A stretch of DNA of 64,000 bases from Candidatus Latescibacterota bacterium (GTDB lineage Bacteria; Latescibacterota; UBA2968; GCA-2709665), in contig OZ252100.1 of NCBI GenBank assembly GCA_965248435.1, positions 2,848,001 through 2,912,000 of the forward strand. Reading direction: 5' to 3'. This document shows, piece by piece, positions 24,694-57,318 of this stretch. The translations under genes were made by a program, and so were the position numbers. Numbering within the stretch: the first letter of the stretch is position 1; each line of letters begins with the position of its first letter. A model generated the notes under the pieces. That model did not search any database and had not been told where the DNA came from. It saw only the letters and a list, made by a program, of their open reading frames with translations.

Positions 24694-24770
24694 TGGTGGG
24701 CGATACTGGACTCGAACCAGTGACCTCCTGCTTGTAAGGCAGGCGCTCTAACCAGCTGAGCTAAACGCCC
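24694..24770 (-). tRNA. tRNA-Val(UAC)
   Basis: GGGCGTT TA GCTC AGCTGGTTA GAGC G CCTGC CTTACAA GCAGG AGGTC ACTGG TTCGAGT CCAGT ATCGCCC ACCA cloverleaf with encoded CCA. Confidence 0.97.
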
Positions 24771-44956: not shown

Positions 44957-45206
44957 ATTGTCTTCTCCCAGGGTAAGTTCAGCAAGTTTAGAACGTTAAG
45001 CAAAGCGTCTGGGGGTGTCAATACCAAATCGTGAAATACCAGTATATTAGAGATTGACGACCCCGCTGAACAAACTGTTGACAGCGCCTTGACGGATCAT
45101 TACTTTAATACGACAGGAGTGGCAATTTGGGGCATATTGCAGCCACTTTAAACAAGCTGCTAAAAAGCCGCCGAGAGCCCGGCCTCTAGTCGGGTCTCTT
45201 TGCTCT

Positions 45207-54196: not shown

Positions 54197-54314
54197 TTTT
54201 CGTGGAATTTCGTGTCCTTCGTGATCTCCGCAATCCCAAATCCGCACTCCACAACGCCTCACGTTCCCCGGTACCCGTGTTTTTATTCCCCGGTACCCGG
54301 TCTTTCACACGGCC
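54197..54314. repeat. Composite intergenic repeat, copy 2; overlaps the recJ 3' end
   Basis: Same module order as 37085-37213. Confidence 0.75.
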
Positions 54315-55986
54315 GCATGTCTTTTACTTCAAGCTCCACTTTCTGATAACCATTCCACGTATTCTTGACCAGTGAAAACGCCACATCCACTCGTTTGCCC
54401 GCAGAGAGGAGTTTGGCGAGGTCTCCCTGTCGCCACCAGATCGCCCCGAGAACCTGCTTATCCATCTCTAGCTTCATCTTGAGGTGTGTCCCGCCATCAC
54501 CTACCGTATCCACGGCGCGAATGTCACACCCTTTCACCATAAAGCACGGCGATTCGTTCAAAGGCCCGAACGGTTCCAGCGCATCGATGAGCGACACCGA
54601 TCTCAGCGAGATGTCAGAAGGAGCCAGCTCCGCATCGATCTCCAGTCGAGGGGTGAGCGCCTCATCCGTCAGGGATTGATTGGCGTCCTGGATCAGCCGG
54701 TCGCGAAAGGTCTCGAAGTTCTTCGCCGGCAACGTGAAGCCGGCAGCTGCCGCGTGGCCCCCGAACTCGCTAAGCAGATCGGCGCATTTGAAAATCGCCT
54801 CGAAAATATTGTAGCCGCCCGAAGATCGCGCCGAGCCGGTAAACGTGCCGTCCTTTCTGACCCCTGTGCAGATGGCCGATGGGCGCGCATACGCCTCCGA
54901 TAAACGGCCGGCGATCAGACCGATGACACCCAGATGCCAATCCTCACCCGGAACGACCAGGATCCTGTCCCGAAACAGCTCACCTCTTTCCACCTGGCCG
55001 CGCGCCTCGTCGATGCCCGCGTTCTGCAGTTCCATCCTTTGTGCATTCAGCGCGTTCAACGCTTCGGCCAAACCTTGAGCCTTGGCTTCGTCCGGGCTCC
55101 GAAGAAGGTCCAGAGCAAGCTCAGCTGAGCCTAGCCGGCCCGCGCTGTTGATTCTGGGACCGAGGAAGAACGCGATCGCCGTCGTATTCACAGGTTTGTC
55201 CGCCGAACCCGCCACCTCTTTGAGCGCCCGAAGTCCGGGTCTCGCCGTCTTGTCCATCACCCGCATCCCTCTCCGGGTCAGCAGTCGGTTTTCGGAAACC
55301 ATCGGCGCAACATCCGCCACGGTTCCTAGCGCAACCAGGTCCAGGAGAGAATTCAGGTAGGGCACCCTCTCTTCACGGCTCATTAGATCCATCGAAGCGG
55401 CCTGGACCACCTTAAAGGCAACACCCACGGCCGCCAGACCCTTAAAAGCGTAACCACAATCCGATCGGTTCGGGTTCACGATAGCTACAGCGGCCGGCAG
55501 TCGTTCCTGCGGATGGTGGTGGTCGACCACCACGACGTCCACGCCCGCCTCACGCGCGATGTCGATCGCCTCGAACGAGGAAATGCCGTTGTCGGCCGTC
55601 AGGATCAGCTGCGCGCCTTCTGCCAGAGCACGCTCGACCCCGGGTGGCTTCATTCCGTAGCCGTCTCGAAATCGATCAGGGAGGAGGGCCACCGCATCAA
55701 TCCCGATACGCTCGAGGAAGTCCATCAATACCGCAGTACTCGTCACCCCGTCGACATCGTAGTCGCCGAACACGACCACGCGCTCACCCTTCCTCCGGGC
55801 ATCTAGAATCCGACTCACCGCACGGTCCATGTCCTGCATCTTAAGGGGGTCCAGTAGAACCTCGGGAGCGTCCGAGATATCCTCGCGGGTCAGCGATCGG
55901 TTCTTCAGAAGCATATCCATCAAGGAATTGTAGGCATCCCGATGCCTGAGATGCCATATGGGATACTGCTGCATCGTTGCCGTCAA
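54283..55986 (-). CDS. recJ: Single-stranded-DNA exonuclease RecJ
   Basis: GDYDVDG, DNG, VDHH, LGTVADV, PRINSAGR, GSARS, GGHAAAAG. Confidence 0.96.
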   Translation of the reverse strand: MTATMQQYPIWHLRHRDAYNSLMDMLLKNRSLTREDISDAPEVLLDPLKMQDMDRAVSRILDARRKGERVVVFGDYDVDGVTSTAVLMDFLERIGIDAVALLPDRFRDGYGMKPPGVERALAEGAQLILTADNGISSFEAIDIAREAGVDVVVVDHHHPQERLPAAVAIVNPNRSDCGYAFKGLAAVGVAFKVVQAASMDLMSREERVPYLNSLLDLVALGTVADVAPMVSENRLLTRRGMRVMDKTARPGLRALKEVAGSADKPVNTTAIAFFLGPRINSAGRLGSAELALDLLRSPDEAKAQGLAEALNALNAQRMELQNAGIDEARGQVERGELFRDRILVVPGEDWHLGVIGLIAGRLSEAYARPSAICTGVRKDGTFTGSARSSGGYNIFEAIFKCADLLSEFGGHAAAAGFTLPAKNFETFRDRLIQDANQSLTDEALTPRLEIDAELAPSDISLRSVSLIDALEPFGPLNESPCFMVKGCDIRAVDTVGDGGTHLKMKLEMDKQVLGAIWWRQGDLAKLLSAGKRVDVAFSLVKNTWNGYQKVELEVKDMRPCERPGTGE

Positions 55987-56359
55987 AGCTTGAGAAATAG
56001 CCTTCTCCTTCTCTTAGAAACTTAACCCCTATGCCGGGGCTACGGGTCACCAAGTCCCCTCTGAGGAGGGGTATTTCGGCGAAACCGATCGGTCATAATA
56101 GATTTCGGTCACTCCAATTCCGGAGGCAGTGCAGTACGTCATCGGCTCCAGACTCACGACGTATAACCAAACAGTGATCACCAAAATCCCCTCCTGGGTC
56201 GGGGTGGGTCACAATAGGGTTTCTGCCCATCAGACCCACCCCTAAATCCCCCCCCCAAGGAGGGCACTCTAACAATCGCACCAAACGCTTTCCGGGGTGT
56301 CCCGGCAAGGCCGGGACGGGGTGGGAGCGGTGAACATTCAAATAAATTGGAAAAAGGAC

Positions 56360-56387
56360 TAAAGTTTGCTCAAGTCAAAGCCGATAC
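56360..56387 (+). promoter_or_regulatory. Sigma-28 (FliA/SigD)-type promoter
   Basis: TAAA-N16-GCCGATAC with extended TAAAGTTT. Confidence 0.7.
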
Positions 56388-56523
56388 TGGGGATAGGGAG
56401 TAGAACTCCCTTCCCTGGAAGCAGCCCTCGGACGGACTCGGGGAACCCGAACGCCCGACGCACACGCCTCATCCGGGATGATGGGGGAGAAAATCGCAGG
56501 AAGTGAAACAGAAGGGGAAAGGG

Positions 56524-56692
56524 AAAAAACAAAGCCGACCTCACCCCCGGCAGGCCGAATCGCCTAAAGGGGATGCGGAACCGGCGCAAAGCAGGGAGGC
56601 AAGCCGTCGAAGCAGGAAGCCGCTTGGTCCGGCCCCCCTTTCGCCTAGGGAAGGGGGGTCCCTGTTTGTCTGGGAATGAGGTCAGCTTAACA
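56524..56692 (-). ncRNA. Candidate structured small RNA of about 160 nt
   Basis: 17-bp closing stem (56672-88 with 56532-48) containing three G-U pairs that work only on the minus strand; three internal hairpins; U-rich tail; starts just below a sigma-28 box. Confidence 0.6.
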
Positions 56693-56699
56693 CTATAGA

Positions 56700-56726
56700 C
56701 TATCGGCATTTAGCGTTCGATCTTTA
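56700..56726 (-). promoter_or_regulatory. Sigma-28-type promoter
   Basis: Minus strand TAAA-N15-GCCGATAG. Confidence 0.7.
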
Positions 56727-56925: not shown

Positions 56926-57318
56926 TTGCCCAGAATCCTCCTGGCGGAAGATGCCGTTTCGGCGATGATTCTTGCCCGTGTCCTCTTCGACGACCCCGAC
57001 CTCCAGATCGACGTCGTCACGGACGGTCGCCGTGCGCTGGAGCGCCTGAATCAGGCCCCCAAAGCCTTCGATCTGGTCATCCTGGGCTATGACGTGCCTG
57101 GGGTCAGCGCCCCCGAATGCGTCGCCTTCATCAAACAGATGTTCCGCCGACTTCCCATCCTCGTCCTCACAGAATCTCTCGAAGAAAACCAACTCAGCGA
57201 GCTGGCCGAACTTGGCATTCGGCAGGATCGTGTCCTGGAAAAGCCGATCGAGCCCGAGACCTTCGCGGCCAGAGTCAAAGGAGTCCTGTCCGAAGGAAAT
57301 CGGTTCAGGCCCCCATAA
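56926..57318 (+). CDS. Atypical (pseudo-)receiver domain protein; start uncertain
   Basis: RILLAED...FDLVILGYDVPG...LT...KP; Gly at the phospho-acceptor Asp position. Confidence 0.75.
   Translation: MPRILLAEDAVSAMILARVLFDDPDLQIDVVTDGRRALERLNQAPKAFDLVILGYDVPGVSAPECVAFIKQMFRRLPILVLTESLEENQLSELAELGIRQDRVLEKPIEPETFAARVKGVLSEGNRFRPP

Follow-up and report, generated by a model that had tools for sequence, protein, structure and literature searches.

A ~170-base RNA behind a flagellar sigma promoter, beside a CheY-like gene, is probably a new motility regulator in Latescibacterota

Gene context and features of the locus

We analysed a stretch of 64,000 nucleotides from a Latescibacterota genome (contig OZ252100.1, positions 2,848,001 to 2,912,000), referred to here as the window. 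Toward its end, an intergenic region of about 880 nt separates recJ from a stand-alone gene for a CheY-like receiver, beyond which fabI is located; at the same spot the nearest relatives have about 100-130 nt. The minus strand of this region carries a structured element with a sigma-28 (FliA) promoter motif at its foot (copy 1), and a second motif of the same type (copy 2) is convergent with it from the recJ side. The features, with the evidence on which each assignment is based, are listed below in window coordinates.

56524 to 56692, minus strand: structured RNA core, composed of the closing helix P1, three hairpins (a four-way junction) and a U-rich run; fold, pair probabilities, models R1-R3 and covariation
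56672 to 56688, minus strand: 5' strand of P1, AAGCUGACCUCAUUCCC; pair probabilities and covariation
56633 to 56658, minus strand: P2 hairpin, CCCCCCUU...AAGGGGGG; pair probabilities and alignment
56624 to 56632, minus strand: junction word J2/3, CCGGACCAA in the window and CUGACCAA in most members; alignments A7 and A8
56603 to 56625, minus strand: P3 hairpin, family consensus GCG..../....GGC, with AAGCGG/CUGCUU as a further possibility in the window; RNAalifold
56555 to 56578, minus strand: P4 hairpin, CCGCAUCCCCUUUAGGCGAUUCGG; pair probabilities, with a hairpin at the same place in every homolog folded
56549 to 56554, minus strand: junction word J4/1, CCUGCC in the window and CCUGUU in family f2; alignments A7 and A8
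56532 to 56548, minus strand: 3' strand of P1, GGGGGUGAGGUCGGCUU; pair probabilities and covariation, and also the pattern that recovered the metagenome homologs
56456 to 56523, minus strand: pyrimidine-rich stretch 3' of P1, a possible tail of the RNA; sequence, crossed by contigs X3 and X4, pyrimidine-rich in all homologs
56700 to 56726, minus strand: sigma-28 promoter copy 1, TAAAGATC-n11-GCCGATAG, reading into the RNA; pattern match and published consensus
56360 to 56387, plus strand: sigma-28 promoter copy 2, TAAAGTTT-n12-GCCGATAC, convergent, predicted +1 at 56395; pattern match
56929 to 57318, plus strand: stand-alone CheY-like receiver gene, divergent from the RNA, its ORF open from GTG 56854; Pfam Response_reg, E 2.4e-12
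54283 to 55974, minus strand: recJ, downstream on the strand of the RNA, true ATG at 55974; Pfam DHH, DHHA1 and RecJ_OB

Fold of the RNA and search for known families

The closing helix P1 is formed by AAGCUGACCUCAUUCCC and GGGGGUGAGGUCGGCUU through 17 pairs, three of them U-G, as had been proposed from the letters of this DNA in an initial sequence-only reading; the probability of each pair is 0.75-1.0. On the minus strand, the 3' strand of P1 is followed by UUUGUUUUUU. The CCCCCCUU/AAGGGGGG helix and the UGUUUUUU tail of that reading are both present; of its second hairpin, the AAGCGG/CUGCUU part forms, whereas the outer CCGG/CCGG does not and is replaced by CCG/CGG. Its third hairpin, AGGC/GCCU, gives way to a longer one, CCG.AUC.CC...GG.GAU.CGG, which is indicated by homology and ends right before CCUG.

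The predicted free energy of the window's minus strand is -76.9 kcal/mol (z -2.28, with 4 of 200 shuffles equally good), and the plus strand folds about alike (z -1.83, 5 of 200 shuffles as good). This fold beats the shuffles only modestly. The case for a structure beyond chance rests on the relatives; two homologs, G004 and G048, fold at z -6.87 and -7.20, respectively, with none of 200 shuffles as good for each. A terminator scan reported a small hairpin with a T-run at the window element. A terminator-like end, i.e., a G+C-rich stem with a U-run, is seen in the window, G004 and G048; the U-run is not conserved: the near twin L024 has a shorter one, and genera g8 and g9 have CUUCUCCACCUCU in its stead.

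Searched with Rfam 15 at gathering thresholds, the RNA region has no match; the only gathering matches in the whole window are a tRNA and SAM_alpha, both located elsewhere. When matches with E up to 10 were allowed between 56200 and 57000, four noise matches only were obtained (E 3.4-8.3); one of these, the plus-strand match to PrrB_RsmZ, scores 10.7 bits where the family threshold is 44 (E 8.3). Neither CsrA (PF02599) nor Hfq (PF17209) has a match in the genome (97.5% complete), and 6S RNA (RF00013) matches nowhere in it. That blank made 6S RNA itself a candidate for our element, and it was ruled out by the four-way-junction fold and by the joint loss of the RNA and fliA. The long closing helix also brought to mind a retron msr/msd RNA, which is made less likely by the list of ORFs, where no long one precedes recJ. 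On the plus strand, a 58-aa ORF (56503-56679) was set aside, as its frame, judged by eye, is not kept in G048.

Homologs, common architecture and covariation

BLAST of a 221-nt stretch against 40 relatives returned a single match of 25 nt, so covariance models were needed to find homologs. Model R1, built from the single sequence, matched G004 (E 2e-7) and G048 (E 0.009) over the full length, both matches being located between a divergent receiver gene and recJ. R1 contained a window-specific helix, CAAACAGGGA/UCCCUGCUUUG, without counterpart in the relatives, and was therefore replaced by R2, which holds only the common four-way junction and scores G004 and G048 higher than R1 did. A first pattern scan of genome contigs returned only the two genomes already known; the exact pattern of the P1 3' strand recovered 18 metagenome contigs, with the full RNA in 7, a scan with one exact pattern that misses divergent members. 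Model R3, built from 10 sequences, matched the RNA in 12 of 151 genomes sampled from the phylum (a sample from a larger group, searched with stricter filters): the window's genome, 10 of the 30 genomes of family f2, and one weak, non-syntenic match in f3. Eight of the f2 matches are new syntenic loci.

In total, the RNA is found at 18 loci in Latescibacterota genomes and metagenome contigs, belonging to two families. Downstream on the strand of the RNA, recJ is present at all 18; the divergent stand-alone CheY-like receiver gene is present at 17, and the contig of the 18th (L031) ends before it. Weak non-syntenic matches (L010-L015, L049-L054, L064 and L065), with no adjoining recJ, receiver gene or sigma-28 box, were rejected; L010-L015, from the window's own genome and genus g3, are read as dispersed-repeat hairpins, and the remaining ones as repeats or chance. 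The claim of a novel structured multibranch RNA is supported: the helices exist, the Rfam check is blank, and covariation is seen in alignments of 10 and 17 sequences. Identity with a dispersed repeat, which would have spoken against that claim, is not what BLAST finds; the RNA is single-copy in G000, G004 and G048.

The members have one architecture in common. P1 has 15-20 pairs, often with a bulge of 2 nt, and is followed by an A-rich joiner; P2 is C-rich on its 5' side and G-rich on its 3' side; then come the single-stranded CUGACCAA (CCGGACCAA in the window), P3, a variable P4, CCUG(UU/CC) and the 3' strand of P1. Covariation was evaluated on two alignments, A7 (MAFFT, 10 sequences) and A8 (model-fitted, 17 sequences), each compared with controls in which the pairing partners were slid. 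In A7, 90.3% of cells are paired (37-54% with slid partners), 11 pairs are changed on both sides (1-4), and the covariation score of 0.237 (0.06-0.11) is reached by none of 500 shuffles. In A8, which leans to the model, 87.6% of cells are paired (42-56% slid), 20 of 37 pairs are changed on both sides (5-10), and the score is 0.290 (0.05-0.14); the structure itself had been derived from the sequences that are aligned. Of the checks proposed in the sequence-only reading, the homolog search gave 18 loci, and double changes exceed those of the slid controls in both alignments.

By helix, the paired share of cells for P1 is 95.0% in A7 and 91.2% in A8, where 8 of its 18 pairs are changed on both sides; for the P2 helices it is 84.5-100%, 8 of 9 pairs being changed on both sides (A8); P3 shows such changes in 3 of 5 pairs; and the consensus columns of P4 are poorly aligned (75% paired). 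GACCAA (J2/3) is invariant in A7 and seen in all rows of A8. GCCUG (J4/1) is invariant in A7 and present in 15 of the 17 rows of A8, with AGUCUG in L047 and AAAUUU in L043. Invariant junction words of this kind, together with covarying helices, are features of the riboswitch or aptamer type; ligand binding by this RNA is itself hypothetical. An alternative helix between GCUGACC (J2/3) and GGUCGGC (P1 3' strand), possible in f2, was rejected by eye, since a compensatory change in P1 of G004 is not mirrored in J2/3.

Sigma-28 promoters and co-occurrence with fliA

Copy 1 was found as a pattern match at C1:2904701-2904726(-), i.e., window 56701-56726. The published consensus for sigma-28 is TAAAGTTT-n11-GCCGATAA (PMC2859248), where GCCGATAA occupies -15 to -8 and TCTAAAG occupies -36 to -30 (PMC12784957); compared with a -35 box TAAAG(TTT) and a -10 box GCCGATAA about 11 nt apart, copy 1 reads TAAAGATC-n11-GCCGATAG. 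By the numbering of the -10 element (-15 to -8), its +1 is predicted at window 56692, four bases before P1. This is also the end coordinate that the sequence-only reading had given, which chose the right strand and placed both ends nearly exactly. The upstream block, TAAAG followed after 14-16 nt by TGCCGATA, is common to the RNA loci (17 of 18, the contig of the 18th being cut there), and the predicted +1 is located 0-17 nt before the start of the model in 17 of the 18.

The sigma-28 motif occurs 11 times in the window's genome, against about 1.7 expected, 2 in the reversed genome and 0-4 in block shuffles. Three instances precede, by 167-210 nt, genes for proteins with Flagellin_N and Flagellin_C domains, in the orientation TAAAG, GCCGATA, gene. 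These flagellin contexts fix the orientation of the motif otherwise than two earlier ideas on the pair of 30-nt blocks would have it, namely back-to-back promoters of the receiver gene and recJ, or terminal inverted repeats; both were dropped. FliA itself is encoded in the window's genome (TIGR02479, 281.8 bits against a cut-off of 189.6).

Among 53 genomes of the order, 12 have fliA over the cut-off, 11 have the syntenic RNA, 10 have both and 40 have neither, counts that we read as a pattern with no statistical test attached, since related genomes are not independent and the co-occurrence overstates its own weight. The RNA is present in G038 with no fliA match (44 of 285 candidates scored there). 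G036 (82% complete) has fliA and yielded no orthologous recJ locus. In G001, of the same genus as the window's genome, fliA and the RNA are both absent, and the recJ locus is without receiver gene or RNA. G008 has fliA, and its locus holds a degenerate remnant only: in the spacer of L066 (genus g5, 1010-1500), copy 2, a P2-like hairpin and UUGACAAGCGG are kept, copy 1 and the 5' strand of P1 are not; the RNA there seems to be in decay or to have diverged.

The block of copy 2 is located near recJ on the opposite strand at all 18 loci, 12 of them exact and 6 with one mismatch by eye. It is directed toward the 3' end of the RNA and, farther on, toward the receiver gene. In G002, a relative without the RNA, the two half-blocks adjoin each other, with a copy-2-like promoter some 65-100 nt ahead of the receiver gene, which suggests that the receiver gene is an ancestral sigma-28 target and that the RNA unit is nested in its leader. 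Genus g10 has, in addition, a sigma-70-like TTGACT-N16-TATATT before the receiver gene, and a weaker match is seen in the window; with such a promoter of its own before the receiver gene, copy 2 may not feed it.

Two further observations concern sigma-28 sites elsewhere. At G000 C1 911747, 2138129 and 2390470, no ORF of at least 90 aa starts within 450 nt downstream, and these TAAAG-N-GCCGATA sites could drive other non-coding RNAs or short genes. The word GAYAGGGG(G/A) is found at about +1 to +10 after several promoters of the sigma-28 type (G000 C1 1304660, 4229530 and 5497001; window 56387-56405) and, in other genomes, after copy 2 (GACAGGGGG), possibly as a common initial-transcript or leader motif.

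Presence in RNA libraries and the 3' end

Five RNA libraries carry small shares of the window stretch. Two contigs, from two libraries of two studies, cover the RNA locus at 90-95% identity: X3 (178 nt) covers 56427-56611 and X4 (207 nt) covers 56465-56678. Both lie wholly between the predicted starts at 56395 and 56692; as contigs without strand, ends or expression level, from RNA libraries that can contain DNA, they give weak support to transcription at the RNA locus. Cover of the receiver gene or of recJ (its first 75 bases compared) was not found, which shows nothing either way; the other library pieces are 86 nt at the end of fabI and 32 nt on a repeat. X3 and X4 extend 60-100 nt past the U-run, of which both lack 7 nt, like L024, a hint that the 3' end of the RNA is not at 56524.

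Possible modes of action

With structure, conservation and covariation, fixed synteny, a sigma-28 motif at the P1 foot, co-occurrence with fliA and presence in RNA libraries all observed, we consider it rather likely that a new, conserved, sigma-28-dependent, non-coding structured RNA of about 170 nt is encoded on the minus strand at window 56692-56524. Placed behind a flagellar sigma promoter and beside a CheY-like gene, it is probably a new regulator of motility; its mode of action we infer as follows.

The fixed convergent promoters, the place of the RNA in a probable leader of the receiver gene and its loss with fliA point to an RNA acting at its own locus. The RNA would be antisense within the long leader of the predicted copy-2 transcript heading for the CheY-like gene; it would pair with this convergent transcript, its own transcription would collide with that of the latter, and pairing or collision would set the amount of the sigma-28-driven CheY-like message. 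Such antisense interplay is our tentative preference among modes of action, with a chance that we put somewhat below even. The idea of an antidote to an opposite RNA, voiced in the sequence-only reading, is accordingly a live one, the conserved convergent sigma-28 promoter being predicted to make an RNA of the opposite strand. Known examples of this layout are CopA, RNA I and Sok, stable, stem-loop-rich cis-antisense RNAs opposite the leader of the mRNA that they control, which are plasmid-borne and not known to be driven by sigma-28. Compared with them, the opposite transcript of the Latescibacterota RNA is predicted from a promoter motif only.

An antisense role alone would not require conserved junction words. 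Junction words that do not vary, together with covarying helices, resemble a binding pocket, which makes binding of a protein or small ligand through CUGACCAA and CCUG a serious alternative or addition to the antisense interplay; we regard it as possible rather than expected.

A different view places the functional element on the plus strand, as a riboswitch-like cis leader of the receiver mRNA made from copy 2, with the minus-strand RNA as secondary. The conservation of copy 2 at all 18 loci agrees with this, as do the copy-2-like promoter just before the receiver gene of G002, where the RNA is absent, and the strand symmetry of the helices. The minimum free energy is lower for the antisense strand at 8 of 14 loci and for the sense strand at 6, and RNAalifold gives -35.5 (sense) versus -38.5 (antisense) for A7, in favour of the antisense strand, and -26.5 versus -22.0 for A8, so that thermodynamics is not decisive as to strand. 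The leader view leaves copy 1 unexplained, though, with its predicted start 0-17 nt before the model at 17 of 18 loci. Further pointers to the minus strand are the U-rich runs after P1 in most members and the excess there of G-U over A-C cells (37 to 13 in A7, 55 to 21 in A8), and the spacing between element and receiver start is variable, from 130 to 250 nt. We therefore take a plus-strand leader to be improbable.

The junction words would have a more specific meaning if the RNA were a stand-alone sensor, i.e., an aptamer of a new class, with CUGACCAA and CCUG binding a signal linked to motility (a second messenger such as c-di-GMP, or a flagellar or chemotaxis protein), and a sponge or switch made under sigma-28. 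Ligand-dependent folding of P1 would decide between a stop of transcription and run-on into the convergent sigma-28 transcript. If true, this would couple a chemical signal to the expression of the CheY-like gene; in this specific form we think it unlikely.

The sequence-only reading had favoured CUUCCU, CCUCCCU and UCCCCUUU as seeds, and a trans-acting sRNA that blocks the Shine-Dalgarno sites of target messages by its C/U-rich words or its pyrimidine-rich 3' tail deserves consideration. Pyrimidines predominate 3' of P1 in all homologs, with ACCUCU retained in f2; GGAG 8-9 nt before recJ start codons indicates that Shine-Dalgarno pairing is used in these genomes; and sigma-28-dependent base-pairing sRNAs have a precedent in E. 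coli (PMC10578931). The three loop words, however, are confined to the window and L024, its near twin, CCUCCCU lying within an insertion of about 20 nt that the other members lack, and thus cannot be conserved seeds of the family. Conservation sits instead in the junction words and helices, which is atypical for a seed, and no Hfq gene was found in the genome. Duplex folding of the RNA against the start region of the receiver gene at nine loci gave z -2.15 to +1.22 and no common site. We hold a trans-acting role to be unlikely.

Upstream of recJ and co-oriented with it at all 18 loci, with a terminator-like end in the window and conserved junction words, the RNA might also be taken for a transcription attenuator or riboswitch in a long recJ leader. 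The recJ start is 208-550 nt downstream of the RNA, however, behind the conserved opposing promoter; RNA-less relatives keep the same recJ-proximal block; and the RNA tracks fliA, whereas recJ is in all genomes. We hold this to be very unlikely. Lastly, a decayed, functionless member of a dispersed MITE- or REP-like repeat is suggested by the resemblance of P2 and P4 in the window to hairpins A and B of a genome repeat family, by repeat copies ending in GGCCGGGGGTGAGGTCC, which is nearly the 3' strand of P1, and by the greater length of the whole intergenic region than in the nearest relatives, and it is hardly credible for an RNA that is single-copy in three genomes, orthologous at 18 loci of two families with covariation, unlike the repeat in its f2 homologs and equipped with a conserved promoter of its own.

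Relation to known regulatory RNAs

Returning to the preferred reading of a sigma-28-dependent RNA, its closest parallels are in regulon logic. E. coli UhpU, MotR, FliX and FlgO are sigma-28-dependent sRNAs that feed back on flagellar synthesis (Melamed et al. 2023, PMC10578931); like these, the Latescibacterota RNA is a small RNA under the flagellar sigma factor, here by promoter motif. The E. coli four are UTR-derived, Hfq-associated and base-pairing, whereas the present RNA is a stand-alone gene with a four-way junction, for which no Hfq was found and which has no sequence relation to them. In Campylobacter, the FliA-dependent non-coding RNAs CJnc170 (PMC11187230) and CjNC1/CjNC4 (PMC4626219) are reported to belong to the late flagellar class; they come from another phylum and have no homology to our RNA, which is without evidence of a base-pairing target.

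Bdellovibrio bacteriovorus provides two comparisons (Karunker et al. 2013, PMC3627812). Three of its attack-phase sRNAs have the FliA-type promoter TTAAG-N16-CCGATA. Its merRNA, a stand-alone c-di-GMP aptamer RNA with no downstream gene and a proposed ligand sponge, is an earlier case of a folded RNA that stands on its own within a motility programme; it is, however, a known aptamer and is unmarked as FliA-driven in Table 2 of that report, whereas the Latescibacterota RNA matches no known aptamer. Our RNA thus has regulon logic in common with the known sigma-28 sRNAs, but not sequence, fold or cofactors.

In a limited literature search, we found no description of a regulatory RNA from Latescibacterota, a widespread uncultivated phylum. 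If our reading is true, riboregulation of motility by sigma-28 extends past Proteobacteria and Campylobacterota, to an RNA with an aptamer-like fold and without Hfq or CsrA. A textbook sigma-28 promoter, a fixed CheY-like partner, an opposing sigma-28 promoter and co-loss with fliA make it a testable handle, and the RNA is suitable as a new Rfam family.

Repeats and other features of the window

A dispersed repeat of about 130 nt is located at window 56181-56315 (minus strand), with at least 12 copies in the genome at 75-95% identity. Part of the long gap that separates recJ from the RNA is due to this repeat; in the near twin L024, 98 nt just downstream of the repeat are missing.

A second dispersed family of about 150-170 nt occurs on G000 C1, e.g., at 1466939-1467050, 4929867-4929990 and 4982559-4982690. 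It starts with GGACCTAACCCCCC, followed by hairpin A, CCCCCCTTCCC TAAA GGGAAGGGGGG (about 25 loci), and, after 45-70 nt, by hairpin B, CCCTCCCC TTTA GGGGAGGG (about 16 loci), and then ACCGAGGGAGGGGTCC; it is often flanked by CGTATCTCG / CGAGATACG, and similar repeats are found in genomes of genus g3. This layout mirrors the order P1-P2-P4-P1' of the RNA; the family may derive from the RNA or may have exchanged sequence with it.

The two Rfam matches of the window are a tRNA gene at 24697-24770 on the minus strand (Rfam tRNA, 73.6 bits) and, at 45109-45183 on the plus strand, SAM_alpha (RF00521, 41.7 bits against 36), for which Latescibacterota lies outside the namesake group of the family.
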